A stretch of 64,000 nt of DNA. Source: Proteromonas lacertae. Taxonomy: Eukaryota. The notes under the pieces were generated by a model that saw nothing but the letters and a program-made list of their open reading frames with translations, ran no database searches and had not been told where the DNA came from. Made by a program: the position numbers and the translations under genes. The stretch lies in NCBI GenBank assembly GCA_002245135.1, contig NGBS01000878.1:1-64000 (forward strand), written 5' to 3'. The stretch's first letter is position 1, and every line of letters starts with the position of its first letter. Shown here one piece after another: positions 35-60,571 of this stretch.

Positions 35-816
35 ATGGGTAAATTTAAAGATTGGTTAAAAAAATCAAAAATTCTATCAAATGCAGCTAAGTTAATACCT
101 TTTGCTGGACAGCAATTGGTGATAGTATTGAGAATATGGGTTATGGTAGACGTAGAAGAAGAAGAACAGTTAGAAGAACAAGAAGAAGTAGTGTAAGAAG
201 AAGATGTCCTTTAAGAAGAAGAAAGACAAGTGCTATTACTTTAACTTGTAATTGCATAAAGGTTAAACAAGGAAGAAGAAAAGCTAGAAAAACAAGAAGA
301 ACTAGAAGACATAGATTTACTAGTGATGGTAGATTAATTAGATCAGCAGGTTTAGGTAGCTGGTTAAAAAAAGGAATAACAAAAGTTAAAGATTTTGTGA
401 CTTCTGACAAATTTAAAAATGGTATTGAAAAAGCAAAAGAGATTAACAGCACATTGAGAGAGAAGAAGTATATAAGCAATATAGCAAGAAAAGCTCGTAA
501 TGTTGCTAATACATTAGGTTTTGATAAAGTTGCTGATGTTGCTGATAAAGTATATAATACATCATCTAAATTCGGTTATGGTAAACAAAGAGTTAAAGGT
601 GGTTTAAGATATAAACAAAATGGTGCTGGTTTAAGAAAACTAATTGCAAGAAGAATGCCAGTTAGTAATGGTGCAGGTAAGAGAAGAAAACTAATTGCAA
701 GAAGTTTGCCAGTTAATAATGGTTTAACAAAACCATGTGGATTTAATAAAAAAGGTATTTATAATCCACAAGTTGATTTAGAAATTTTTTTAGCATACAG
801 TGTTAAACATAAATAA
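35..816 (+). CDS. Arg-rich virion core/membrane-active precursor-like protein (adenovirus pVII/pVI-like analogue); apparent 1-nt frameshift near 110
   Basis: ATG35 gives MGKFKDWLKKSKILSNAAKLIPFAG; a -1 shift at ~110 gives AIGDSIENMGYG-RRRRRR and joins ORF 136..816. The protein has poly-Arg blocks, GYG/GAG/GLG/VKGG sites, and the amphipathic segment GLGSWLKKGITKVKDF. Confidence 0.6.
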
Positions 817-1541: not shown

Positions 1542-4500
1542 ATGAGTAATAAAAAATCAAAAAATAAGTTATCTAAAAAGATGACAAATTTATTAATGAA
1601 GAGAATATTAAAACGTATTAGACGTAGAGCAAAGGTGAAGAAGTTTAATAAACATGTTAAAACTAATAGTGAAGCAGAACTTATAAAGTATTATATGAAT
1701 AGTGTTGAAAGAAATAAAGCAAGAGAGGAAGCATTTAATGAATATAATCAAAAAGAATATATGCAAGGTGTAAATCAAAAAGAATTAATAATATGGATGA
1801 AGCAATGGAACATATTATCAATAATATTGAAAGATATAGAAATCCTGATTCAGATAGGCTAAAGAAAAATTTTGAAATGTATCAAGATGCAATTAGACAT
1901 GGAAAAGCAAGTGCTACAGATGCAGATAAATATTTAGGACCTATTGAACAATCAGTTATGATAGGTGATGAAATTTATCATCATGATCCTAACTTTGTTT
2001 ATACTAGAAATGCACATCATAAACCAGGTGATGATGTTTATAGAAGAGGTCCTCCAAAAAGAGCTTCGATATATTGACCTGATGATGGTGATGATGGAGA
2101 TAATGGAGGTGATGGAGGAAATCATAGAGTTAGAAATCCATTACCAGGACCAAATATACATGGTCCACCACAAGTACCAAATGATGGAAATATTCACATA
2201 GTTCAAGACGGTGGAGGTGATAATGGTGGTATAGTAGTGAACCCACCACCTAGAGTTCCACCTCCTAGAGGTGGTATAGTAGTGAACCCACCAGTATATA
2301 GACATCCTCCACATAGAGTAGTAATAGTTAACCCTCCACCTAGAGTTCCACCTCCTAATGTAGTAAACCCACCACCACCTAGTGGTGATGGTGGTGTTAG
2401 AATAGTTAACCCCCCGCCACCTATAGATGTACCATCTAGAGTACCTGTAGTGAATCGAATTCCTTTAGAACATAATCCATCATCACCAGTGTATGAACCA
2501 GCAAGAATAGTTAATCCACCAGGTATATCTGGAGGATTATCTATTCCAGAAAATAATGTTCCATTAATAGTTCCATCAAGAGATAGAAATTCAACAGATA
2601 ATATACCTTTACCTAACAGTAAACCATCATCACCTATTTATGAAAGAGAAAGAGAAAGAAGTGCATCACCAATACCAATTAATGATAATGATGATGGTGA
2701 GACAAGATATAATTTTAGACGTGAAAGAAATAGACCTAAAAGATATGAAGATGAATTTGTTGCTTATGATGGAACTACATATATTCATGAACCATCAAAT
2801 CGAGTATTAGAAAGTACTAGTCCTCAAATTTATGTAAATAAACCTCACAAGAAAAGAATATTATCTAAAATTACACCACATGAAAATATAAATCAATATA
2901 ATAGAAGATTATTAACTCAAAATAATTATGATGATATAGTAATTGAAGAACCACCTCCACCACTACCACCATTAGTAACAGATAATAGTACATCACCAAT
3001 ACCAGTTAATGATAATGATGATGGTGAGACAAGATATAATTTTAGACGTGAAAGAAATAGACCTAAAAGATATGAAGATGAATTTGTTGCTTATGATGGA
3101 ACTACATATATTCATGAACCATCAAATCGAGTATTAGAAAGTACTAGTCCTCAAATTTATGTAAATAAACCTCACAAGAAAAGAATATTATCTAAAATTA
3201 CACCACATGAAAATATAAATCAATATAATAGAAGATTATTAACTCAAAATAATTATGATGATGTAGTGATTGAAGAACCGCCTCCACCACCAGTAATAGA
3301 TAATAGTACATCACCTATTACAACAAAATTAAGAACAGTTAATGATACATCTAATATAAATTCATATGTAAGATCACCTAGGCATTTAAGAATTATAATG
3401 CCTTCTAGTAATGATATGCAATCATTAATAGTATCAATAAATGATAGAGCACAAAGATCATTGGTTAATAATGGAACAAGTAATTTATTATATGATAATA
3501 ATAATAATTTATCAATTCTTAACGATTCTACTGATTTTATAAATTCTAATAACCGTCATCTTAATATAAATATGGGAAATAATATAGATATTGATCCGCT
3601 ACCTCAAAGTAATGATAATGAAGAACATCAAAGAGAGATAGAAAATAGATTAAATGCTGAGATACAAGAGAGAGAAAGAATAGAACAAACTTGTAAAGAA
3701 TATTTAGCAGAAAGAGATAAAATTAGAAATACAATGGCTGATTATCAGAATCGAATATACAATATGACAGCAATAAATAATAATTTATTAAATAAAATAT
3801 CTTCTCTTGAACAAGAAACTGAATTACAAAATAAATATAATGCTTTAGCTGCTCATTATGAACATGTAAATAATCAATTAAATGAACTACAAAATAGATT
3901 AAATGTACCACATGTTAATAGTAGCACAAATACTATACCAGTTAGTGAAAATGATGAATCAACTAGTCCTATTCCATTAGATATAAATGATCAATCAACT
4001 AGTCCTATATCTATTTCATTAAATACTCAAGATGCATCAACGAATACAGATAAAAATTTAGGAAAAAGAATATCTGTTAAATCAAAACGATTAAATAATG
4101 ATGATTATATAGTTGATTGGAATAGTACAGGAAAATATAAAGATAAAAAAGGTGAAATAAAACTTATAATGAAAGATTCAAAATCAGATAAAAGAAGAAA
4201 TGTTTTACACAATAGAAGAAAAAATAAAAGATTAGATACAGTATCAACTAAATCAACGACAACACCTATTCAACAACCTCCGCCACCAACACCAGTACCT
4301 ATTCAACAACCACCACCACCAACACCAACACCGGCACCTATTCAACAACCATCACCACCAACAACAACACCAACACCACAAACACAAGTACAAGTTCCAC
4401 CATTAAATTTATCTAAAGTAGAAGAGTCAACTTCACCAATACAAAAAGCTAATACTTCTCAAGTACCTTCAATTAACATAAATGAAAAAGCTAAACAAAT

Positions 4501-5356
4501 GCTTAATAATTTCTTTCATGGTGCATCTAAAGCAACTGAAGTTATAAAAAATATGAGTCAAGGAACAGTTAATACTATATCAGATATATTTCATACAATA
4601 AAAAATGTTACGGAAACAGAAAAAAATGAATCAGAAATAAAGAAGAAACAAAAAGAATTGGAATTATTACAAGAAAAACGTGTAAGAGAAAAACGTGCAA
4701 GAGATGAAAGAGCAGCAAAAAGAGAAAGATTAAAAGAAATAAGATTAAGAGCAATTGAAGAGGCTGAAAAATCAGAGAGGAGAAGAAAAGTAGCACAAAT
4801 AAATGAACCACCTCCACCATTACCAGGAAGAGTATTAAGAAATAAAGATGAAAGACGTAAAAATTCGAAATATTATAATAATGATAATTTAGTTGATGCA
4901 AGTGGAAATGGAACATATAAAGATATTAATGGTAATGAAGTTACAATTACAATTGGTAAAAAAGTAAATAAACCTGTTAAGAATAAAAGAAGAAAGATAA
5001 ATATTACATTAAATAATGATAATAATAATAATCAACAAAATGAAGTACCAATTACAAATAATAATAATGAAGTACCAGTTGCTGTAACTGATAATGAAAA
5101 AGAAAAAGATTATGATGATGATCCAGATTCAATTATGGCTGTAGGCTATAATACATTTTATCGTCCTATTAGAGAAGATGCTGATATAAATAGACCACTT
5201 ACATCAAATGCAATTCACTTTAGAGATAATCGAGATAGAATTGATTACTTCCAAATGATTCAAAGTAATGGTATAGATCCTGCTAGAGCACGTTTAAGTG
5301 ATGCTGATTTAAATAGATATTATGAATGGCTTAATAGGTCACATAATAAAAAATAA
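1542..5356 (+). pseudogene. Large basic/Pro-rich/coiled-coil element protein split by a frameshift (~1780) and an in-frame TGA (2075-2077); disrupted or recoded
   Basis: ORF 1542..1862 overlaps ORF 1793..2077 at an A5 run. ORF 1793..2077 and the open frame 2078..5356 are in the same frame, separated by one TGA. The downstream ORF starts at GTG and has no nearby ATG. Confidence 0.6.
2664..3291 (+). repeat. Near-identical 327-bp (109-codon) tandem duplication inside the Pro-rich ORF
   Basis: The segment SPIP(I/V)NDNDDGETRYNFRR...YDD(I/V)VIEEPPPP occurs twice with offset 327 (for example 2705 and 3032) and very few mismatches. Confidence 0.95.
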
Positions 5357-5418
5357 TTGATATATTTATATTTTTTATTTAGACATATATATGATGTTTT
5401 ATATATAAATAACATAGA

Positions 5419-6582
5419 ATGAATGATTTACAACATAAAATTTATGAATTATATAAAGACTTTGGTTATTTAAATAAGAATGATTTCATAAATTTTAGTG
5501 TTGATGAATTATCATCAAAGTATTCAAAACCTGATATAACAAAAACTGCTAAAGAGTTAGTTGAATCAAAACCAGATTACCAAGTAGCAGTTAAAAAAAG
5601 AATAAATATTAAATATGAAATAGAAAAGATACCAGGTTCATATCAAATGGATATTATATTTTTTAATAATACAAAATTACCTTTTTTATTTATAATTGAA
5701 GTAGTTAGTAGAAAAGTGTGGATATATTATGTTAAAAGTAAAACTGAATCAAGCGTATTTCCAGTTTTTGAATCATGGTTTTATCAAGGTCTTAAACATG
5801 TTAATGAAAATGCTAGATTTGTAGGTTCTATTTTGATGGATCAAGAATCTGGTGTAATATATGGTAATAAGTTTTTGCAGCTATTTAATAAAAATAATAT
5901 TAGATTTATAATGAAAGATACTGATGAACATAATATAATGAAAATATTAGATAGCGCAGTAAGAACTATTAAAAATATGTTTTATAGATACTTGAATACT
6001 TTTGATGATAAAGAATTTGAAAAGTTAAATAATCTTAATGGTCTAATTGAAATAGTTAACACTGTAGTATTATATTATAATTCAAAACCACATAGCTCAC
6101 TTAATAATTATACACCAAATGAAGTACATGATGATTTTGAATTACAAGATTTGTTTTATAAAGAATCAAGACAAAGAAATAAAGAACGAAGATTAAAAGA
6201 TACTAAATTTGATAGAAATGAATATGTTAGAGTTAAAGAGAGAAGAAGAAATAAGTTAGATAAAAGTAGATATTTTAATGATAAAGTTTATATGATTGAT
6301 AAAAGAACACCTTTTTCTTACTCATTAAAGAATATAGATGGATCAATTCCTTCTGAATTTAATCCTAAAAACCTTGGTTTATTTAAATTTAAACCATATG
6401 AATTAAGAAAAATTAAAAATGCTATTAAAACAAAGGGTAGATTTAGGTTAAGTGCAATAAAAAGCATAAATTCAAACAAAAATGATAGTGATAAAAATGA
6501 TAAAGTAACATATATTGCACCTAAAAATATAAGAAAGAGTTCTTTTGGTAGAACTATAAGACCTAATTCAAAATATACATAA
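5419..6582 (+). CDS. Retroviral-type (rve) integrase, Polinton/Ginger-like
   Basis: Motifs YQMDII (D78), LMDQES (D141), ILDSAVRTIKN (D178) and YNSKPHSSLNNYTPNEV, followed by an SH3-like tail (F..NEYVRV...Y.LK...FKPYEL). No HHCC zinc finger or chromodomain. Confidence 0.92.
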   Translation: MNDLQHKIYELYKDFGYLNKNDFINFSVDELSSKYSKPDITKTAKELVESKPDYQVAVKKRINIKYEIEKIPGSYQMDIIFFNNTKLPFLFIIEVVSRKVWIYYVKSKTESSVFPVFESWFYQGLKHVNENARFVGSILMDQESGVIYGNKFLQLFNKNNIRFIMKDTDEHNIMKILDSAVRTIKNMFYRYLNTFDDKEFEKLNNLNGLIEIVNTVVLYYNSKPHSSLNNYTPNEVHDDFELQDLFYKESRQRNKERRLKDTKFDRNEYVRVKERRRNKLDKSRYFNDKVYMIDKRTPFSYSLKNIDGSIPSEFNPKNLGLFKFKPYELRKIKNAIKTKGRFRLSAIKSINSNKNDSDKNDKVTYIAPKNIRKSSFGRTIRPNSKYT

Positions 6583-6741: not shown

Positions 6742-8156
6742 ATGAGTGTACGTGTTAAACATACTTCACCTAGAGATAATGAAGATAATTCTTCATCAAA
6801 GACATTAAAAGTTGTTAAGAAGAGTATATAAATACATCATTAAATATATATAGATGAAAAGAAGACTCAACAAAATGAAGAAGCATTAGCACTACCTTCA
6901 TCATCGAATTCTAATCAAAAAACAGGTATCTATATATATATTATATTATATTATATTATATATACATAGCTTTTGTGCATAGATTTAACAGAAAAAGCAT
7001 TAACAGCTTAGATGTCAAAGAATGGATTAAAATTAGAAGTATTGCACAAAACATTATAAATTATTGTGATGATAAAATCAAATATATTCATTATAATAAC
7101 AGTCCAAGTTTATTATCCTTATCATCAGTAATTAGATATGCTAGTTCATTAAATTTATTCTTTGATGCAGTTGAAAAGAATCCTCAATACATAAATGGTG
7201 AGGTACTAAAAGATATTGATGAAGTCTTATTAATTAGCCCATATTCTCTAGGTGACAATTTTACAACTGATAATAAGTTATTAGGTGGTGTGAAAAGAAA
7301 AGCTAATATTGATGATGATGATGAAGATGATGATGGATGTATTAAACGCAGTAAAAGATGTAGAAAACTAACACCTAAATCAAATATTGGTGGTGAAAGC
7401 ATTAAAGTGCATAAAATAAATACTACTATCAAAAAGCCTTTAAAGTCTGAGAAGAATTTAGTTGATGATGCATTAAAAAATAAGGAGACTGATTGGATTA
7501 ATGATAATGATGTTTTTGAAGATTTTGATGATGATAATGAAGTTATCAAAATTAATGTATCAAAACCAAAGGTAAATATAAAAAAAGATAAAATTACACC
7601 AGTAGCTAAAGTTATTACTGATGAAACTAAAATTACACCACCAGCTAAAGTTATTATTAATAAAGATACATTAAAGGAAATGGAAGACAATATTAACAAT
7701 GATAAAGATTATTATTACAGCAAACATAATTGGGCTAATCCCAAAAAAATTATACAACCAACACTTAAACCGATATTACCTAAAGTGAATTATGAAATTG
7801 CTGAACCACCACCAATAGTTCATGAAAAACCAATTGTTAAAGAAATAGCACCATCATTACCACCTAAACCTTTAGTTAAGATTGCACCTAAACCTTATGG
7901 TACAATCATTAAAGACAATACTCCACCAGTTAAAGTTACACCACAAGATCAGTATGATGTCTTTAAAAAGAAGGTTGAATATCAAAATGAATTAGAAAAA
8001 CAAATTGCTTCATTGAAAAAGACATATGTGCAACAGTTAAGAGATGAAAACCCTAATCTCAAGTTTGATGATGATGGCAATATTGTTGATGTTGATATTG
8101 ATAATGATATTGATTTCAGTCCAGATGAAAGTATATTTGATGACTTTCTTAAATAA
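6742..8156 (+). CDS. Hypothetical Lys/Pro-rich protein, 3 exons
   Basis: ATG6742; removing GT-AG introns 6824-6853 (30 nt) and 6926-6969 (44 nt) joins in frame to ORF 6975..8156. Confidence 0.75.
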
Positions 8157-8751: not shown

Positions 8752-9210
8752 TTATAATTGTATTTTATTAAGTTTATGAATATAATGTCTCATGCATTTC
8801 TTACATACATTATTCTTATATATTTTTAACTTAGATTTCATTTTTCTACATATAAAACATCTTATTTTATCGTCATCTTTTCTATGCTTATGTTTAGCTG
8901 AATATTTTGTTAAATTTTTATAGTATTTAAATAAGAATTTAAAACATACTTTACATAATGTAATTTCTTTTGATCTATACTCATTTTTAAAGAAACGAGC
9001 GCAATAACCACATTTAAATTTATCATCAGCATCAACTGATATGCTTCTAAGTTCATTCTGTTTTTTACTTCTATATTTTGCACCATAACATCTATTATAT
9101 TCTTTGCATTTATTACAAAGAATTGTAATTCTACCTCTATCATTCATAAAATCATTAATAGGCTTAATACATTCACATCTTTTACAGCGCTTTTTTTCAC
9201 TTGTATCCAT
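8752..9210 (-). CDS. Basic Cys-rich zinc-finger protein (three CxxC...CxxC units)
   Basis: CKRC..CNKC, CGYC..CKVC and CFIC..CKKC; intronless and Lys-rich, as in small viral DNA-binding proteins. Confidence 0.75.
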   Translation of the reverse strand: MDTSEKKRCKRCECIKPINDFMNDRGRITILCNKCKEYNRCYGAKYRSKKQNELRSISVDADDKFKCGYCARFFKNEYRSKEITLCKVCFKFLFKYYKNLTKYSAKHKHRKDDDKIRCFICRKMKSKLKIYKNNVCKKCMRHYIHKLNKIQL

Positions 9211-9296
9211 TTTTCTATTTTTATAAAAAAGAAAAAATAATGTAAAGAAAATTTATAATGAAAATCTTATCGAAAATTATAGTGTTGAAAAACACT

Positions 9297-10166: not shown

Positions 10167-10445
10167 TGAACTCTAGATGCAAAATCAATTATATATCTAA
10201 ATTTTTATATTATTTAATGAATCATGATTCATTTGAGAATTTCTTGATGTTTTTGATGTATCTTTTATTATTAACAAAATATATATAAATATTAAAAAAA
10301 TATGTATATTAATCATCTCTACAGATTTATAGTGAGATGAATCAATTATAGAGTTTTTAGAATTTTTTAGTGAACCTCTAGATTTAGTGAACCTCTAGAT
10401 GTAGTGAGCTGTTCTACCCCCCAGCAGGGTAGTCATCTCTACAGA
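10167..10445. repeat. Repeat cluster, putative terminal/subterminal region of the element
   Basis: 17-bp tandem TTTAGTGAACCTCTAGA (10366, 10383); TGAACTCTAGA (10167); 13-bp direct repeat TCATCTCTACAGA (10313, 10433); hairpin CTACCC-N7-GGGTAG (10414-10432). Confidence 0.7.
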
Positions 10446-10659
10446 AAACCTTACGGATGATATATATAGAATGATTTAAAAATTGGAGAGTTTAATCGAT
10501 TAAAATTGACTACAAATTAGTAAAATTGTTTACAAATTGTATATAAATTGTTTATAAAATGTAACTAAAAACATTGATTTTACTGTAAATTGTTTATTTT
10601 AAAACTCTCTATGTTTTTTCTTTTCCTCTATTATATATAAGAATATACTTCAAACATAT

Positions 10660-40676: not shown

Positions 40677-41027
40677 CTACATTGATGTGTATTTAGTAAC
40701 TGCCTTTGTACCTTCTGATACAGCATGTTTTGATAATTCACCTGGTAATAATAGTCTAACTGATGTCTGAATTTCACGACTGGTTAATGTGGCTTTTCTG
40801 TTATATCTAGCTAAATGAACTGCTTCTTCAGCAAGTCTTTCAAAGGTATCGTTGACAAATGAATTCATAATTGACATAGCTCGCTTGCTAATACCAACAT
40901 CTGGATGCACCTGCTTTAAAACTTTGTATATATAGGATGAGTATGTCTCGATTCTCTTCTTCTTTCTATGAGCGTTATCAGACTTCTTTTTAGTGCTTTT
41001 CACACTCTTATTTGGAGTTTTTGCCAT
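40677..41027 (-). CDS. H2B: Histone H2B
   Basis: [21 protein letters not shown]...[30 protein letters not shown]. Confidence 0.98.
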
Positions 41028-41209
41028 TTGCTAGAGTTATATAAGCAAGAATATATACGATTTTAAGCGCCAAACAACTGCCAATAACTTCTTTCTAAAT
41101 TCTAAAAGATCAAAAATCATTCTATTCAAATCCTGCGATTTGATTGGACTAAATAAAAAGCGCGCCAAAAGTGTTTTATTAATTCATTCTATTTCTCACT
41201 CTATAGTTA
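41028..41209. promoter_or_regulatory. Bidirectional H2B/H2A promoter with E2F-like and CCAAT elements
   Basis: GCGCCAAA at 41067-41074 and GCGCGCCAAAA at 41160-41170 (reverse complement of TTTGGCGC); CCAAT at 41081 and ATTGG at 41143. Confidence 0.65.
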
Positions 41210-41632
41210 ATGTCAGGTAAAGGTAAAGGAGGAAGAGGTGGTAAAACAAGTGGTAAGACCATTTCAAGATCATCCAAGGCTGGACTTACATTCCCTGTAG
41301 GAAGAATCGCTAGATTGATGAGAAATGAACATGTAGCTGATCGTATTGGTGCTGGTGCTCCAGTTTATTTGGCGGCTGTGATTGAGTATTTAACTGCTGA
41401 GATTCTTGAATTAGCAGGAAACTCAGCCAAAGATAGTAAAAAATCTAGAATTATTCCACGTAATATTCAATTAGCAATAAGAAATGATGAAGAATTCGCT
41501 AAATTGTTTAATAATGTGACTATTGCAGGAGGAGGTACTTTACAGATGATCCATCAAGAATTATTAGCAAAGGGAAGTAAAGCAGCAGCTGATAGTGATA
41601 ATGAAACTGGTTCTGCTTCACAAGCTTACTAA
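41210..41632 (+). CDS. H2AX: Histone H2A with C-terminal SQAY (H2A.X-type)
   Basis: [15 protein letters not shown]...[25 protein letters not shown], with a terminal SQ-x-Phi motif. Confidence 0.9.
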
Positions 41633-49197: not shown

Positions 49198-52100
49198 TTA
49201 CATAATATAACCATCAACCACCACTTGATGTTTTCTTTTATATGATCTATAAACATAATACGATAAACCCACAATAAGTACAGCACCTAATAATCCACCA
49301 ATTACACCACCAGCTATTGCACCACCATTTGAACTTTTCTTCTCATATCGTTGATGAACAAAATATACAACACCAAATCTATTTCCTTTTTCTAATTCCT
49401 CTTCGATTGTTATTCTATTACCATTTCTACTACATTGAACTGGTTCTTCTACATCCACTGTTAATGAATTCTTCTTCTTAAAACAACTATATTTCATATT
49501 TTTATCATTCGTTTTTAATGGAATTTGTAGTTTTGTTTTTATATTACATTGTAATGGTTTATCTGTGTCAAAATATATTTGATAAGAATATTCAACATAA
49601 CTCTGTGGATTTTTAATAACAAATTCAGTTGGATATACAGATAGACTGATATTTATTAATTCATTACATTTTCTCATTGATTGTGAATCTTTTATATCTA
49701 AAACAATATTATCCATCGGTTGATTCAATTTGATTGTATTATTATTGAATATTGGTTCAAATGTAATTTTATCTGTATTATTTGAATAAATTGAGTGAAT
49801 ACCAGCTTCTAATAGCATTATTCCATTATCTAAATCGTTCAAATCAAATAAATCGAACAAAGATGACAATACAGTGTAATATGATTTGTAATTACTATCT
49901 TGTAATAATCTATTATTATTGTTATTAGTTCCTTCTACTGTTATTGTTGTTGTTGTTTTTACAATCGGTGTAGTAGTTGTTATTATTGTTGTATCATTAT
50001 CATGACTTGTAATATTATCTAAAATTGCAGTAACTAATAATTCACCAATATCTTCTTTATTTTCAATATCCTTAGCAATTATTAAGGATGATTTTACTGT
50101 CACATCTATATACTGTTTATTACTCAATAACGTAGGTAAAATATTCACATTCTCTTCAGGTCTTGATCTCATGATAGTCGTGAATAAATCTTGAATAAAT
50201 ATATTCTCTTTTAATGCTATTGTTGATAAGATTTCATTTAAATATAAACTCTTTGGAGTATCATCAATCATTTCTCCTACTACAGTTCCATTATAAGATT
50301 GAATAATTAATACTTCTAAAAAGTAATCAGTTTTTATCCATTTCTCTTCTCCATGTTTATAACATATAAAATAAGTAGTTTGTTCTTGTAACCATTGAAT
50401 TGTAAAGTGAATAAGTATATCATCAGGGAAAACAGTTAATTCAAATGGATAACCAGTATGTTCATTACAATCTTCAGTTTTTGAGAATAGAAATAAATCA
50501 TTACTTTCTATACCTTTACCTCTTATTTGTAAGTGTTTCTGTGAACTGATTAAACCATATATTGGAGCTATTAAGTTGATATAAGGATCAGTTCTAAATG
50601 TCATTTTCAACTCGGAGATTTCTTTATTTAGTCCAATTCCATTTTCATCAATTTCATAACAATATATATCATACCAAGTGAAGTATATTAAATCATCAAT
50701 CTTAAATGGAGTATAATTGTTCCTAATTATTTCTTTCTTATATTTTGTATTATTATTATATATATCTTCAACACTCGTTGGTGTAATATCTAAATAATGT
50801 ATTAATGGTAAGCAATAAACAGTAGCATCTGAGGAGGAATATAGTAACAATTCAATTGAATCAAAACTAGTACTTTGTAATGTAACTGTTAATTCAGGAT
50901 AAGGATTAGTAGTTCTAAAGTTCTGTTTATTGACATTCAAATCAGATTCATCTCCATTCTCAGTTTCAATTCCACAGTATAATGTATATTCCATTTCATT
51001 TAATAGGTTATTCACTGTAATTGAGACTGTTTTATTTATTTCTAATTCTTTCTTTGATTCGGATGATAGTAACTTCAAAGTAGTCCAACTTGGTTGAGAA
51101 TCATATATAATACGACTTAAACAGTAAATATATCCTTTCAATTCACTCTCTATTTCAACATCTACAGAATTTGGAGAAGGTTTGACTGATGTTATTGTCA
51201 TTGTTGGAATGATTAATGTTTTTGTTTTAAATGTCATATCTTTAATAGATGTTGATACAGATACTTCATTCATATTATAACCAGTACAATACACATTGTA
51301 TTCTGTCTCAGATTTAAGGGATGGAATTGTAATCTGAGTAATTTCATTGGCTGTTGTAACTGATAAAGGATCACTCGTTGTAAACTTTTCATCAAATTCT
51401 ATATTCGTCAATTGAGCTTTACACTTTATATAACCATCTTGACTTAATACAGCTGTAACTAATATACTTTGAGATAAAGGATTGACTTTTATATTAGTTA
51501 GTGTTGGTGCTGATGATGGTAATGTTGTAGTTGTAAAGTCTTTCTTTGATACTGCTGATTCTGTATTTACATTATCAACCATATGGCATTCTAATCTATA
51601 AGATGTAGAAGGTGTCAAGCCATATTCAAACTTTGTAAAATCAGATAACGAATGGATGGATGTATAATAATTTGTAGTAATTGCTTCATCATTACTATCA
51701 TACACTTGACATTGATAAATACCATTCATTGAGGCTTTTAATGTATATTTTATTGAATTACTAAATGGAGTAACTGATACTATGGTTATTGATGGTTTTG
51801 ATGCTGTTTTGATTGATAAATGTGTACTTTCTATAGTTTGTTTCATTTCCAAAGGTCTTTCACTGTATGAATAACCATTACAATATATATGATAATCAGT
51901 ATTGGATTCTAAACTACTAATTGTATAGGAACTTTCAACATCTTTCAATAATATAAAATCTAAATTAACAAAATGTGAATCTGTTGGGACTTTATTCTCT
52001 TTTAAAGCAATACATTCTATTAAAGCATCTCTTGTTGATTTTATATTTAATATAACTGAAATAGATGTTGTTGAATTTTGTTTAATTGTGAATTCAGGTG

Positions 52101-55100
52101 ATGAAGTGGTTGTATTTACTTGAAGTAATAATAATTGAGATGATAAACCTTCTTCGTTGATTATATTGTAATAAATATTGTAAGTTTCATTGTCTTTTAA
52201 TTTATCAAATTCACCTTCATATATTTTCATCATTTCAGTTGTTTTGGTTGTCCTATTAATTGAATAGATTTCTTCTTCTATTTCTGTACTATTACTATCT
52301 TTGTTATAATATTGAATATAAGGTAATGATGCAGATTGAATGTTAATCACCATTATTCCCATTTGATCACTTACTATTTTATATTTTATCAAACTATCAC
52401 TTACATCAGCTATTTGAATAGTAACCATTGGATAATCAGATGTTTTAATTGTCGTTAGTGTTGACTGAATGGGTAAACTGTAATTCTGATAATTGATTAA
52501 AAGACAATATAAATAATAATTCGTATTAGGCCATAAGTTATCAAAATTGAAATAATTTCCTTCATTTTGATTCACATTTTGTAATGATTTGAACATATCT
52601 CTTTTAGGAATATTCATACTATTTGATTCAATTATACAATCAATTATGTCAGTGTAATTCGTAATGACGTTAATATTAATCGTTGTTGTTGTTGTATTAC
52701 TATCAACTGATATTATTTCTGGGTTATTTGATGGTGTATATATTTCCAAATAAGTATCTTCAATTACATTCATCATTTTATTACCATATATATCAGTTGC
52801 ATAGAAATATAATAATCGATAAATATTAGGTTGAAAATGATTGTAATGATATAAATATGTCTTATTTGCTTCTTTCACTGTCAGTATCAAGTTTGGATTG
52901 CTGAGAAAATCATCTTCTGTTGGAATTATGTGAATATTATTATCAGTTGTTGTTGTTGTTGTTGTTGTTTCTTCATTCAATATTGTCTCATTATACACTA
53001 TAATATATATTAATCCAGGATAAGTCAATTTAAATCCAATAATAATATCATTCGTCTTACTTTCTAAGATTGAATAAGTTAAATTTGGATTATTCATTGT
53101 ATTGATTGATATGTATGAACTAATCATTGTTGAATAGGATATTTCTTGCATTATTGTATTCCAACCACCACAATAGATATAATACTGTGTCTTTGGCTTT
53201 AATCCAGTGATTGTATAATTAATTTTTGAATTGGAATAGACAAATATTGTATCTTCAGCTGTTGATGATGTGATTTGAGTCGGTACTTCGGTTTTCAAAC
53301 AAGCTACACATGAAATATAACCATCTACATTGGCTCTTAATGATAATGTCATATGGGAGGACTCTGTATCTTCCACTGTAATATTCGATAAGATTAATCG
53401 ACTGGATGAATATAAGGTTTGAGCTCTTAAATATTGCACTGCTTCTGTCTGAATTAATGGTTTGATTCTTCCATATAAATAAGTACAATAAATATCATAG
53501 ATTGTATTTGGTTTCAGTGATTCTATTGGTATATTAGCTGTATATAATAGAGTATCATCGTCTGTTATATTTGTATCTAAAATATAAACTATTTTATTAT
53601 TATCATTATCATAATTGATTATATAATCATTTGTCATTGTTTCACTATATTCTCTTATATATTGTTGTTGTTGTTGTTGTTGTATTGATGAAGAGGATGA
53701 TTCAAAATATAAACACTGTACTTCACCATATCCATTATATAACATATTCAGTATTAATGAATTATATCCGTTACTCAATAAATCTATATCAAAATACACT
53801 GTACTATTTGTCTCAACTGTATTTTCATAAGTTACAACACCTGAACTAAATGTATTATTTCCTATCATAATTGTGAATAAGCAATGAATATAATAAGTTT
53901 CATCACTTGCTAATCCTCGAATTGGATAAATACCATCACTTACTGTATTATTTATGTAATTGATATTCTCAAATACACTCAAAGAAGCAGTTGGTGAAAC
54001 AATGGCAGTACAAGTGAAATTATAATCTCTAAATAATTGTGTATTTGTATAAACATCCATTCCTGTGTTATATACATTCACTTTATCTATTGAAAATTGT
54101 ATAGATGGTCTTTCATTCTCAAATATATAATTATTTTGTTCTTCAGTTGTTATAAAATCTAATGTCTCAACCTCACTTTGAGTATTATAATCATCTACTC
54201 CATAACAATATAATGTATATTTTGTATTTGGTTCTAAACCACTGGTATATTGATGTAATGGTATATTCTCCGTTATTGTTACTGGTATTGTCGTTCTGAT
54301 AGTTGGTTTATCTAACTCAGGAATATTTCGATAGGTATGATAACACCAGAATTTACCATTCATATTCATCTTCACTTTGTAATGGAATTGTTGAGCATAA
54401 GTCACATTTACAGCTTCCAACTCAATTATAGGTGGTGATGATAATTTCGCAGTTAAAAGTGAAGAAGTATCACTTATTAATCCATAATTATTAATACCAA
54501 TACAATATATATCTTTTTCATTATAATCAAATATATAAATATCAATATTGACTGATTTTGTTGTGTCATTTATAAATTCTGTGAATTTCCAATTGTTTGA
54601 TATTAATACATCACCTGAATCAACATAATTACATCGAATAATACCTAACTGATTCATTGAAACAGATATTTGAATATATGAAGTTGTTACTGAATATACT
54701 TCACTTATTGAAACTACAGGTTTGGATATATAAGTAGTATAATATTTCATATTATTTATTATATCCTTTTCACTTATATAAATATGATTTCCTGATTGTA
54801 TAAGACAATATATATAATATCTTGTATCAGATTCTAAGTTATTTATTACTATTGAATTACTAACACCTACTTCCACAAATGGTGCTGTAGCTTGTTTATT
54901 ATGATTTTTTATTGAATTATAAACATTACCATTATTTTCATTATTATAATTCATTACACTTTCAAAGGCAGAACATGTTAATGATAATGTCGGAGTTCCT
55001 CTTTCAGTTATTAGTGTATAGGATATAGTCAAAGAATCCATTGTACTTTCATCTTTAGATGATAAATATAATGATGGATTAATCAATGTTTCAAATGGAA

Positions 55101-58100
55101 ATACTTTCGTTCTTAACAAATTATTATATAATAAACAATAAGCATGATATTTAGTGTTTGGCTTGAGATTATTAATTGTTATTTGAGAGATGGTTGAACC
55201 TGTAATAATTGTCTGATAAATACCATCATTTCCATCTTCAAACTCTTCTATACCAGGAATAACGGATGGATCAAATGCTTTACACTTTAAAGTATCAGTT
55301 TGGAAGTAATTACTTGATAAATATACAGATATTGTTATTATTGCTTCATATTGTGATGATTCTACTGTTATTACATCAATATGACTATTTAATGGAATAC
55401 TATCAGTTGTAAATGAATAATATGTTTGTTGAATTGTAGTTTGAGTTGGTAGAATAGCATACTGTGAAATACCATGACTTTTACAATAGATATAATAATG
55501 AGTAGATGGTGATAAGTTAGTGAAGATATATAATGATGGTTTATCTTGATATAATATCTTATCGTTTGGTTTTATTGTTATATCATTTGGTATATCAGAT
55601 ACTGTATCAATTACACATTTTACTTGACCATTTAATGACAAAGTAGTGAAGAATGAAATAGCTGTAGACATAGGATTATAGAGTGATAATGTTAATATTG
55701 GTAGTGACAGTGTAGATACTATTTCATTATAGATAATACTCGTCAAATTGTCTTCATTGTAAGATACACAATATATTGATACTATTGATTCTGGATTTAA
55801 GCCATGAATAATAAAAGAACCATTTAATGATGAACTATCTATATAATTCTTACTTGATGATATTTCAGACGTTTGACAGTATAAATATTTACCACATTTT
55901 GTTGATTTAAACACTGCATAAGTTGATGATATTTCACTCATTGATCCTTCTAAAGGTGGTGGTTCTAACAGTGTTCTATCAATTACAAACAACTGCTTAT
56001 TTGGATCTAATATTGAATATCCATCAATACTAAGAATACAATATATTGAATAACTTGTGTTTGATGTTAAATGGGGAAATAATACTGAATAAGCCTCATT
56101 TTCTGTTATATTAAATGGTCCTTTAGAATAAGGTGATTTATAAATATCACTAAATTCTGGAATATTCTCATTTTTACCAGTATATAATCTACAATATAAT
56201 TCACAACTACCTTCAGATGTTACTTTTAAATCAATTTCATTATAATTGAATTTACTTTCTATTTCTGCATTTACATAACTCAATATTGTTATTACTTTAA
56301 TATTACTCATATAATAATTTACTGTATTATACACGAAACAACCAACATTATACCTTACATTAGCTGTTAAAGACTTAAATAATATTTCATAATTAACATC
56401 ATTATCATTTATTGCTTTCTCTACTGATGGATAATTACCATTTAATTTTTCTAAGTAATAGTTTGGATTTTCAATATTGATAGGTATTGCTACACAATAT
56501 AGATAATTATTCGTTAAAGATGTAATTTCTTCTTCTTTTTTGGTTATTTTTACTATGACTTTTGCTTCACTACTTGAATGGCTCTCTAATATAATACTAT
56601 CTACATTTGCTACATTATTCTTATCAACTAATGTTTTAAGCATTTCATTAATTTCGTAGAAATATTTATCCATTAATATTACACATTGGAAATATTGAAC
56701 TGCTTCAATATCTAATAGTTTATATTTCAATTCATTATTCTTATTGATTTCTTTTATATTAAATTCTTCTCCTTCTTTTAATACTTTATCAATAGAATAA
56801 TCCTCATTTTCATTCACTATACAATATACTTTTATCTCTTCCAATGGCTTTATTATTAATGATATATCTTTACTTACATCATTCACTGTTATCTTATACT
56901 CAGGTGGAGAAGGTTGAGTTGATGTTAATATTGGAATTTTTATTGATACTTGTAGACTGGCATAATAAATATCATCTTTATAATAATATGGCCAACAATA
57001 TAACTCGTTATTAACTACATAACTTGCTACAGTGTGTTTATCATGATATATTTTATTCATTTCATAATCAGCTCCTCCATGTGCATCTGGTAATGTATTA
57101 ATTAAACTATTCTTATATTCACAATATATATTATAATCGTAATTAGTCCCATAGAATTCAAACACTATTGTCTTATCATTATAATATAAGAAATTATCAG
57201 ATATTTTAACTATTGGGTATTTAGCTGTATTTGGAATAATTTTATATATTGTTATATCAGCTGCATTCAAATAGTAACACATCAAATATTGATGTAATGT
57301 TGAACCATAAAATCCAATAACCAAAGTCTTACTATCTTTCTTTGTAGCTTGATCAATTGTATATTTTTCAGTTTTTGAATCGAATAGTTTATTGTCATAT
57401 GTCAATATTGATGAAGTTATACATTTATATTCATCTGTAGCTGGCATTGTAGTTCTATTATCATTAATTGAATATGTTAAATTATAAGTTTTACTTCCAT
57501 CATAATACGTTGATACAATATCCAATGGAGTATAGAAGAATGTTCTATCAACTATTTCACTCTTTATATTTTCTTCATCTTTTCCTACACAACATAATCT
57601 ATTATTCTCATTTTGATTAGTGTATTTCAAATTCACATGTTTTTGTGTATCTTTCACTGTTATTTCGACATTTGCATCTCTATCTATATTTACTGTATCA
57701 CAATCACTTCTTATATCACAATATACACTACCTTTTCTATTCATTGTTACTTGAACGGACAATTCATCATTACTAATTGATATACTACTTTGAACAGTTA
57801 ATGATGGTTTTACTGGACTTAATATTTCTATATTCTTTTTTAATGTTGATATTGGTTCATACTCTACATTATTTGGATCAGTAATTGCATCATAACTAAA
57901 ACAATATAAAGTATAGTATCCTTTCACTAAATTATCAAATTGATATACAATTGGAAGTGATGCTGTAGTAAAATCTACTGAATGATCATGTGATGCAATT
58001 AATTCATTCACAGAGGGAGTTAAATAGAAAGCATCTTTTAATTTACAATATAATGTACCTTGAGTTACTGTTGTTGATGTTACTTCCATTTTTATATTTA

Positions 58101-60571
58101 CCTTATCAACTACTTCTACATTAGATGTTATATAACTATTTTGTTTCTGTTTAACAGTTAATTCAATTGCAGCTGGATTTAATAAATAATTCTTTTCGTT
58201 TGAATATAAACACTTCACTTTATAATTACCATGATCATTTCCAGCATCTAATGCTATTGAATATGCATTATCTTTATAAGGAACATCTATTTTAGTACCA
58301 GATGAATAAATATCATTGGTGGTAGGATCTGGATCTGCTGATCCATATGTTTTACAATGTAATAATCCTATCCAAGGAGCATTAACAGAGAATGTATATA
58401 ATCCATACGATATCATTGGAGTTAAGGTTAAACTATTACCATTATAATTAGGAATTGTGATTATCATTGGTTTATTAATTAAATATATCATATCACCTCC
58501 ACTTCCAGCTATAGTAGTAAATACTGAACAATAAAAGAATTCTTCACCATAAGGTGTAGATTTTTCATATGAAACTTCATTACTTTCTTTTAAACTAATT
58601 GTATCACCAAATGATAATGATTTAATACTAAATGAATTAGAATCAGTACTACTCACACAGACTCCTTCTATATCACTTTTAACTTTATCAAATATAATAA
58701 ATACACCATCATTCATTCGATACTTCATTGATATATTCATTTCTTTTTCTACATTCGGATTGGCAGGAATATTATTAATTATATGAATGAAATCATCATT
58801 TGTACAGATTATTAAACTATCACTATCACTCTTATATGAAACAATTTCTTCTATTGAAGTAGTAATATCATATTCTGTATAATCACTATCAAAAGTAATC
58901 TTTTTAATTTCCTTATCCAACATACACTTAGTTTTACCATTAGAAGCTGGAGTTAATGAAAAATGAATTTCATCTGGAGAAATAGTAATAAACTTAAATG
59001 CAATTGTGGTTGTAAATGATTTTGGCTCAATTTTTATCTCTTCATTCACTTCATTCTTAGCTTTACAGCAGATTGTTCCACTTGCAAAATAACTCAATTC
59101 AAATCGATTGATTCCAATAGTCATATCTATTAAATCACTATCAGCTATTGTAATAGTAGTACAATCTGTAGCACCAGTTGATTGACATTTTATTGTTCCA
59201 TTTATATTCGATTCTACTTCATACATTAACTTATCACCTAATATAAATAAACTATAACTATCTACACTACCTTCATCTGTAGACTTTATTATTGGGCCAA
59301 CCAATTTACTAGTTCCAATTTCATTCCAAACCATACACCAAATACTATATTCAGTAGAAGGTTTTAAGTTATTTTTTTTATTTTCAACATCATTCTCATC
59401 ATAATTTGATGTTAATGTTAAAGTATTAGGAGATGTAGATATTGCACTTTTTCTATTAAATATAGTCACATCAGGTGTTTTATTTTCTTTATTTAATAAT
59501 AAACATGTATAAGGAGAATCATCTATATTTGTATCAACTTTAATGACTATTCCATATGGTAATTGTTTAGTTTCAGGTTCTATCTTAATTGTTCGACTAA
59601 AGTACATTAATTTTGACATTACATCTGATAATCCATCATGTTTATCTTTAGCTACACAATACATAAAATAATCTTTATCTTTTTCAATTGTTAAAGTCAC
59701 CATCACAGACACATCTTTACGACAATCATATGCATTATTTACACTGATTATATCATTCGCAGATGGTGTTAATTCTATACTATTATCGATTATATCTTTA
59801 GATTTGGAATCACAAAATAATTTTCCATCTATATCTACAGCTACTTGACATTTTCCAGTATTTTCACCATCATCAGTACAGTAATCGATTAATAGATTAA
59901 TTGGAATAGTATTTAAGATATTTACATATGAATATATATTACTATCAGTATTAGTAGCTTCTAAAAGACATGATAATTTATAACTATTACCACTGGTGAG
60001 AGGATTTAATTGAAAATCTTTATCTATCACCATTCTTAGACCATCTACATCATTAAACGGAGTACGAGGTGGAAAATCTGCAGAAATGAACTCATGGTCA
60101 GATAAACCAATTACACAGGCTGCTTTACAACCATCACAACCAGTTGCAGGATCGCAAGTACAAGCTTCAATTTTGATTTCGAATGCGGAAGAAAAGGCTT
60201 TCACTGTTACCATATTGTCAAGAATTGTTGGAGGTTTACCTCCTGTTTTTATGGTTACCTTTTCATGTTGAAGATCATTGTGTGAAATGCTAGAAGTGCT
60301 ACAAACCACATTATAATTGGTATTGTATTTTAGAGATTTAAATTCAAAATCTTTAGAACTTGTAACTAACTCTGATGGGGAACAACTTTCAGATTCGATT
60401 GTACAACACACAAATCTGGTTTCTACAGACACAGTTACTTTTATTGATGTTGATGTACTGATCTTGTTTGTTATTTTGCCACTTACCAAAGTACACCATA
60501 CAAACAATAATAAAATTGATTTTACCTATTTATATATACATCACTCTAAAATATACATATTTAATATTCAT
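49198..60571 (-). CDS. Giant (~3780 aa) type I surface protein built of tandem ~100-aa Cys-containing FN3-like repeats
   Basis: A 15-nt exon (ATG60571) plus the 31-nt intron 60526-60556 gives signal peptide MNIKYVKSILLLFVWCTLVSG. More than 20 L.(P/S).T.Y..YC motifs follow, then TM GAIAGGVIGGLLGAVLIVGL and a short basic tail. Confidence 0.9.

Follow-up and report, generated by a model that had tools for sequence, protein, structure and literature searches.

The first 10 kb of the window, a 64,000-nt stretch of the Proteromonas lacertae genome (contig NGBS01000878.1), hold a compact set of orphan open reading frames (ORFs) surrounding an rve-type integrase gene. Directly 5' of this gene lies another for a proline-rich (Pro-rich) protein containing a short motif, RYNFRRERNRPKRY, that resembles the sequence by which Gag from prototype foamy virus (PFV) binds chromatin. 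By analogy with solved structures, the candidate motif has about an even chance of binding the H2A–H2B acidic patch of the nucleosome. The region probably belongs to a Polinton-like/MELD-type DNA virus that has become endogenous in a protist. We regard as evenly balanced the fuller proposal that such an element carries a convergent acidic-patch anchor, duplicated once, which serves to tether the cores of the virus, or its integration complexes, to host chromatin.

A foamy-virus-like motif in the Pro-rich protein

The PFV Gag chromatin-binding peptide is GGYNLRPRTYQPQRYG (PMC12125541). In the solved complex, PFV R540 enters the pocket formed by H2A E61, D90 and E92, with Y537 and L539 packed against H2A Y57/A60 and H2B V41/V45 and with Y549 touching H3 (PMC9040877); Y537 and R540 are invariant across foamy viruses (PMC6042332). 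Of these contacts, the window motif retains the Tyr, a hydrophobic residue, the Arg anchor and the distal Tyr, along with the Asn and the rest of the distal P-x-R-Y. Its Y-N-F-R, at 2708 and 3035, places Tyr at −3 and Phe, in place of Leu, at −1 from the anchor, followed by Pro at +6, Arg at +8 and Tyr at +9, the position of PFV Y549. Acidic residues flank the motif.

With the second motif copy excluded, the highest ungapped BLOSUM62 score for an alignment to the PFV 13-mer is 34. Among 2000 global and 2000 local shuffles, 4 of each kind do as well, counts that overstate the significance because the query was picked after the sequence had been seen. Across 28 host ORFs (11,418 amino acids, aa), the best PFV-motif score is 22 and YN[LF]R does not occur. 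Gag_spuma_C is the sole match of the 108-aa repeat unit among 24,736 Pfam families (E 0.87, 10.8 bits) and the sole Pfam match of a 38-aa cut around the motif (E 0.029, 15.5 bits). A codon-restricted scan of 2.9 million IMG/VR viral contigs for the Y-N-[LF]-R-x5-P-x-R-Y spacing, which was defined after both the window and PFV sequences had been seen, gave six matches: one foamy Gag, one that is read in frame within a long ORF on a 166-kb contig, and four in frames of at most 25 codons. Such spacing is therefore rare, and a second foamy Gag retains it. The likeness to foamy Gag, first proposed in an initial annotation of this DNA, thus holds for one motif, above chance and with the histone-contact residues kept. 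Sequence searches of the PDB (chains of at least 20 residues) with the integrase, the motif and a profile of the integrase tail returned no match.

That annotation had also pointed out the repetition of the motif. Both stretches, 2705–2749 and 3032–3076, do translate as RYNFRRERNRPKRYE within the ORF at 2078–5356, but they are not independent. They lie in a 327-nt tandem duplication with 97% identity over 300 nt and a few differences at its edges; the partner of 2679–2935 shows none, third codon positions and synonymous sites included. Because both copies sit inside one duplication, they represent one motif copied once and count once. The S[TA]SPI-coding stretches at the unit ends may have seeded the duplication.

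Beyond its spacing, the window protein shares with PFV Gag (PDB 5MLU; Pfam PF20673) a disordered region and a coding position 5' of an rve integrase. It differs in that the N-terminal and central domains of Gag and its Gly-Arg boxes are missing, that the motif is present twice and has acidic flanks, and that the element is DNA-virus-like and lies in a protist. Pfam finds neither Gag_spuma_N nor Gag_FV_central in the window ORF, whereas a true foamy Gag is matched by both of these and by Gag_spuma_C. Lamin A, whose binding to the acidic patch has been solved structurally, contacts the same nucleosome surface through the five residues YNLRS (PMC12527912). Plant NMCP1/CRWN has RYNLRR, a motif shown there to drive localization to the nuclear periphery, as distinct from nucleosome binding (PMC3935212). 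Both share with the window protein an RYN[LF]R core in the disordered part of a coiled-coil-containing protein; the window protein has no intermediate-filament rod and no Ig fold, and carries the additional P-x-R-Y extension. The Kaposi's sarcoma-associated herpesvirus protein LANA and the human cytomegalovirus protein IE1 are likewise large low-complexity viral proteins with a short Arg-anchor motif, but no episome-binding domain is assigned in the window.

If the motif docks as PFV Gag and lamin A do, its Tyr and Phe would pack on H2A helix 2 and H2B helix 1, its first Arg would enter the E61/D90/E92 pocket and its distal Tyr would reach H3. Incoming viral cores or integration complexes would be tethered to host nucleosomes in this way. 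More tentatively, the motif may have arisen by convergence, the Pro-rich protein may travel with the viral DNA, and the integrase tail, R-x3-P-x2-[RK]-[YF], may serve as another signal, distinct from the first, for chromatin or nuclear import. The putative target is encoded in the same window by a divergent H2A/H2B gene pair, in which 17 of the 17 acidic-patch contact positions checked, numbered from anchor residues, are intact. This differs from trypanosome nucleosomes, which fail to bind the PFV peptide (PMC10450195).

Several observations weigh against this proposal. The hypothesis of foamy likeness was formed post hoc, both Gag_spuma_C matches fall below the curated 25-bit cut-off, 2 of 46 other 38-mers used as a control matched unrelated Pfam families at E up to 0.03, and segment A of the same protein (see below) matched an unrelated family at E 0.029. 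L539 of PFV is replaced by Phe, P541, T543, Y544 and Q547 are lost, and a structural survey cautions that sequence likeness does not guarantee equal nucleosome contacts (PMC10606924). The first ATG in the ORF at 2078–5356 lies at 3398, 3' of both motif copies, a point overlooked in the initial annotation, and the region upstream of the motifs contains a frame break and an in-frame TGA. Several searches gave no homologs of the Pro-rich protein; among 1.84 billion representatives there were two matches, both Pro/Thr-rich noise. Among the integrase homologs, the tail motif is degenerate in cluster P0003 and absent in P0002. Finally, neither a capsid, packaging ATPase, protease or protein-primed polymerase (pPolB) gene nor terminal inverted repeats were recognized within the window, which opens inside the gene cluster.

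The sub-threshold Pfam scores, and the fact that about 2 in 46 fragments match by chance, would also fit a generic basic patch, namely a nuclear or nucleolar localization signal (NLS or NoLS) or a nucleic-acid binder, whose foamy likeness arose by chance, was picked post hoc and was doubled by neutral duplication. Many basic stretches occur across the Pro-rich protein, the NMCP1 RYNLRR overlaps a working NLS (PMC3935212), and five of the six IMG/VR spacing matches are not foamy Gag. We nevertheless consider this explanation rather unlikely: the match covers the non-basic Y, N, P and Y at exact spacing (again 4 of 2000 shuffles), the sole Pfam match is the family named in advance, and the setting is an integrating nuclear element.

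Internal repeats and the integrase tail

Two segments of the Pro-rich protein, A (KRISVKSKRLNNDD at 4064) and B (RVLRNKDERRKNSKYYNND at 4829), had been described as looser copies of the motif. Both are present, but their kinship is with each other (75% identity over 59 nt; alignment score 52, with 0 of 2000 shuffles as good). Against the YNFRR segment they score 19 and 21, values matched by 990 and 1198 of 2000 shuffles, and both lack Y-N-[LF]-R. On sequence grounds, they are a second internal repeat and not copies of the YNFRR motif. Segment B opens with PGRVLR, resembling PGMRLR of the LANA peptide (PMC10450195), which we note as a lead only.

S[TA]SPI occurs six times in the Pro-rich protein against 0.00 expected, two of the six being duplication partners, and S-x-S-P occurs eight times. 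All four combinations of AGT and TCA serine codons are used across the S-x-S-P sites, and this mixed usage suggests that selection has acted on the peptide, as opposed to copying of DNA. The initial annotation had suggested that about eight such sites could have a cell-cycle role. Their repetition at the protein level stands, but regulation of the cyclin-dependent kinase (CDK) type is not supported: the full consensus [ST]P-x-[KR] is absent from the protein (0 against 1.6 expected). Plain [ST]P is found 18 times against 12.2 expected (89 of 2000 shuffles); minimal S/T-P sites may still serve for phosphorylation.

The three presumed catalytic residues of the integrase, assigned by position, are all Asp (D78, D141 and D178; 5650–5952) and are kept in five of five aligned rows. 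Its nearest Atlas cluster is 90% viral, with Preplasmiviricota commonest, and its model (mean predicted local distance difference test score, pLDDT, 57) matches the folds of retroviral and MELD-virus integrases, with a predicted C-terminal beta region and a tail modeled as low-confidence coil. Five homolog clusters were found; in P0001/P0006–P0011, encoded on contigs of up to 4.4 kb, the integrase identity is 74%. The Pfam Chromo domain has no match in the window integrase or in any of the five homologs, so the missing chromodomain, recorded earlier for the window protein, is confirmed across the family. With Polinton/Maverick, adintovirus and MELD-virus integrases the window integrase shares an rve core, the predicted C-terminal beta region, Preplasmiviricota neighbors and a pPolB-linked relative; unlike them, it has no chromodomain, has Asp, by position, as its third acidic residue and carries a short basic tail motif. 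Adintovirus integrases carry a chromodomain (PMC8502044), and mavirus-like integrases are said to do so (PMC8547959).

The integrase ends in SSFGRTIRPNSKYT, as had been reported, but that this ending echoes the YNFRR motif is not borne out. The tail scores 21 against the YNFRR segment, with 582 of 2000 shuffles as good, the tail 13-mer falls outside the top six integrase windows for the PFV motif, and the tail belongs to a different motif class. R-x3-P-x2-[RK]-[YF] is terminal in four of six clusters (the window protein, P0001, P0004 and P0005). These carriers span both deep branches, 2.3–2.4 changes per site apart, with P0002 placed between them at moderate support. Since the pattern was defined on the same six rows, shuffle counts for it are not p-values. 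Clusters P0003–P0005 have an extra hydrophobic-x-[TV]-R-S stretch, LANA/IE1-like and lacking in the window integrase; P0004 and P0005 end Y-x-T-R-S, and P0004 has RSGR in common with LANA, whereas the window integrase and P0001 are without that first Arg. Tails similar to R-x3-P-x2-[RK]-[YF] are common in long terminal repeat retrotransposons. The register may also resemble that of the CENP-C motif, which has an Arg anchor and an aromatic pair at +8/+9; a single aromatic, at +8, is present here. At E 0.01, Pfam DUF4764 is matched by the C-terminus of P0004 (TTRSGRVSRP), which hints that the tail motif is also present in a cellular family. Integrase tails steer targeting and overlap NLSs (PMC11735389); the text of that paper does not show Tal1 R892 as the same tail motif, and this comparison was dropped.

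The initial annotation had combined these features into a multivalent nucleosome tether of four to five related motifs, subject to cell-cycle phosphorylation and replacing the chromodomain. Consistent with this are the two exact motif copies, the LANA-like PGRVLR of segment B (PMC10450195), the NSKY common to segment B and the integrase tail, the STSPI repeats written with both serine codon families and the absence of a chromodomain from the integrase family. The array dissolves, however, into one recent duplication and two segments that are not copies of the motif; for segments A and B and for the tail, alignment to the YNFRR segment is no better than chance. There are also no full CDK sites, and none of the integrase sets compared contains both chromodomain-bearing and motif-bearing relatives. 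We therefore judge the multivalent tether improbable.

State of the Pro-rich gene and its genomic setting

The Pro-rich gene probably begins at 1542, with a change of frame within 1748–1862 and then the TGA at 2075. TA-runs of 4–13 units precede the ATGs at 35, ~898, 1542 and 5419, and none precedes those at 1793 and 3398. Translation of the motifs would require that the frame break and the TGA upstream of them be bypassed or be artifacts of the assembly. The simplest reading of the frame breaks and the TGA is decay or poor polishing of a repeat, and the gene copy in the window may be decayed. A second frame break is found in the Arg-rich ORF at 35–816, whereas an 11.3-kb host ORF is unbroken. 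The stop at 2075 reads UGA-C and is followed by a predicted stem-loop (2075–2180; z −1.98, matched by 10 of 200 shuffles). Together these give a weak hint of a read-through signal, the alternative being a plain nonsense change. Introns were considered as a bypass and rejected: nine in-frame GT-AG candidates across the TGA all start with GTGA or GTCC, and the one candidate across the frame break is 35 nt long and starts with GTGT, unlike the GTAT-type introns at 6826–7000.

Pfam assigns no family to the whole ORF at 2078–5356, and the predicted architecture comprises coiled-coil-like segments and a disordered tail. The C-terminal helices, considered as LEM/SAP-like, gave no Pfam match and a best Z of 3.8 and are left unassigned. 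This architecture, the identity of RYNFRR to the NMCP1 RYNLRR at five of six positions (PMC3935212), the dispensability of the IE1 tether in productive infection (PMC9040877) and the lack of an assignable DNA-binding domain could fit a protein that acts on the host. In the manner of lamin A, NMCP1 or IE1, it would occupy the nuclear periphery or acidic patches and thereby make chromatin looser or set the place of viral replication, but this is very improbable given that the distal P-x-R-Y extension is common with PFV Gag, not lamin A, and that the gene lies directly 5' of the integrase.

Table 1. Features of the window discussed in the text
Feature	Position	Strand	Remarks
Arg-rich basic ORF	35..816	+	Frame break near 110
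5' part of Pro-rich gene (likely)	1542..2077	+	ATG 1542 behind TA-run; frame change within 1748–1862; TGA 2075–2077 in the frame of ORF 2078
Pro-rich low-complexity protein with coiled-coil-like segments	2078..5356	+	1092-codon stop-to-stop frame
Dispersed S[TA]SPI / S-x-S-P repeats	2627, 2660, 2813, 2987, 3140, 3305, 3959, 3995, 4427 (span 2627..4441)	+	Serines by AGT and TCA
Tandem duplication, 327 nt (109 codons)	2647..3273	+	S[TA]SPI-coding stretches at its bounds; 257 nt identical
RYNFRRERNRPKRY copy 1, candidate acidic-patch anchor	2705..2746	+	Y-N-[LF]-R-x5-P-x-R-Y
RYNFRRERNRPKRY copy 2	3032..3073	+	Same nucleotides as copy 1
Segment A, KRISVKSKRLNNDD..VD...GKYKD	4064..4153	+	Paralog of segment B
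Segment B, RVLRNKDERRKNSKYYNND..VD...GTYKD	4829..4933	+	Paralog of segment A
Predicted C-terminal helix-loop-helix unit	5228..5344	+	pLDDT 75–82
rve-type integrase, 387 aa	5419..6582	+	Without chromodomain
Integrase tail motif RTIRPNSKY	6550..6576	+	R-x3-P-x2-[RK]-[YF]; 4/6 clusters
Host H2B and H2A, divergent pair, putative target	40677..41632		H2B 40677–41027 (−); H2A 41210–41632 (+)

The assignment to a Polinton-like/MELD element is likely but unproven, because the capsid, ATPase, protease and polymerase genes are unrecognized and the window opens inside the cluster. Scans with the integrase locus gave no match in viral contigs, prokaryote genomes or phages. A metagenome scan gave one distant locus among 218 stretches; on this contig (L001, 2–5139), pPolB is followed directly by a related rve integrase without a chromodomain match and without the tail motif. 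The window has a guanine-plus-cytosine content of 22–36% and many genes with short GT-AG introns, and from ~10.6 kb onward eukaryotic genes appear, a HECT ligase and the H2A/H2B pair among them. The TGTTTGTT marker of Blastocystis is not enriched (4 in the window against 6.0 expected), and a Blastocystis host is not supported.

Other features of the cluster were also observed. The Arg-rich ORF at 35–816, probably a virion core protein judging by its likeness, contains a stretch that looks amphipathic, SAGLGSWLKKG, together with GYG/NGAG sites that recur, presumably reminiscent of adenovirus core and membrane-lytic proteins; a homolog scan with this ORF gave no match. The gene after the integrase (6742–8156) has short GT-AG introns of host type. 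A 166-codon ORF at 8755–9252 (−) contains several CxxC pairs and is zinc-ribbon-like, with no Pfam family above cut-off. Near the apparent cluster end, a small GC hairpin accompanies direct repeats of short length at 10314–10450; this is possibly the element terminus, with no partner end within the window. Further on, the intact 3775-codon host ORF at 49198–60525 (−) is repeat-rich with a transmembrane-like segment at its end, and likely encodes a large surface protein.

Possible chromatin tethering in chromodomain-less elements

Structures of viral acidic-patch tethers come from two herpesviruses and a foamy virus (PMC9040877). Full-text literature searches, with subscription journals outside their scope, listed no paper that links polintons to an arginine anchor. 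A broader view of how chromodomain-less Polinton-like viruses find chromatin, which we hold to be unlikely, would be that a lineage of such protist viruses independently evolved the foamy strategy: a disordered, core-associated protein would dock on the acidic patch by a YN[LF]R-x5-P-x-RY anchor and be made by UGA-C read-through, and an integrase-tail motif would contact the nucleosome during integration. If the motif does not bind, the region would amount to a decayed element of the ordinary kind in which a tandem duplication occurred. The 14-residue candidate and the host's own H2A and H2B genes lie in one window, which makes the acidic-patch anchor testable by one peptide assay. If it is true, the YN[LF]R anchor would have arisen by convergence once more, in addition to its occurrences in PFV Gag and lamin A.

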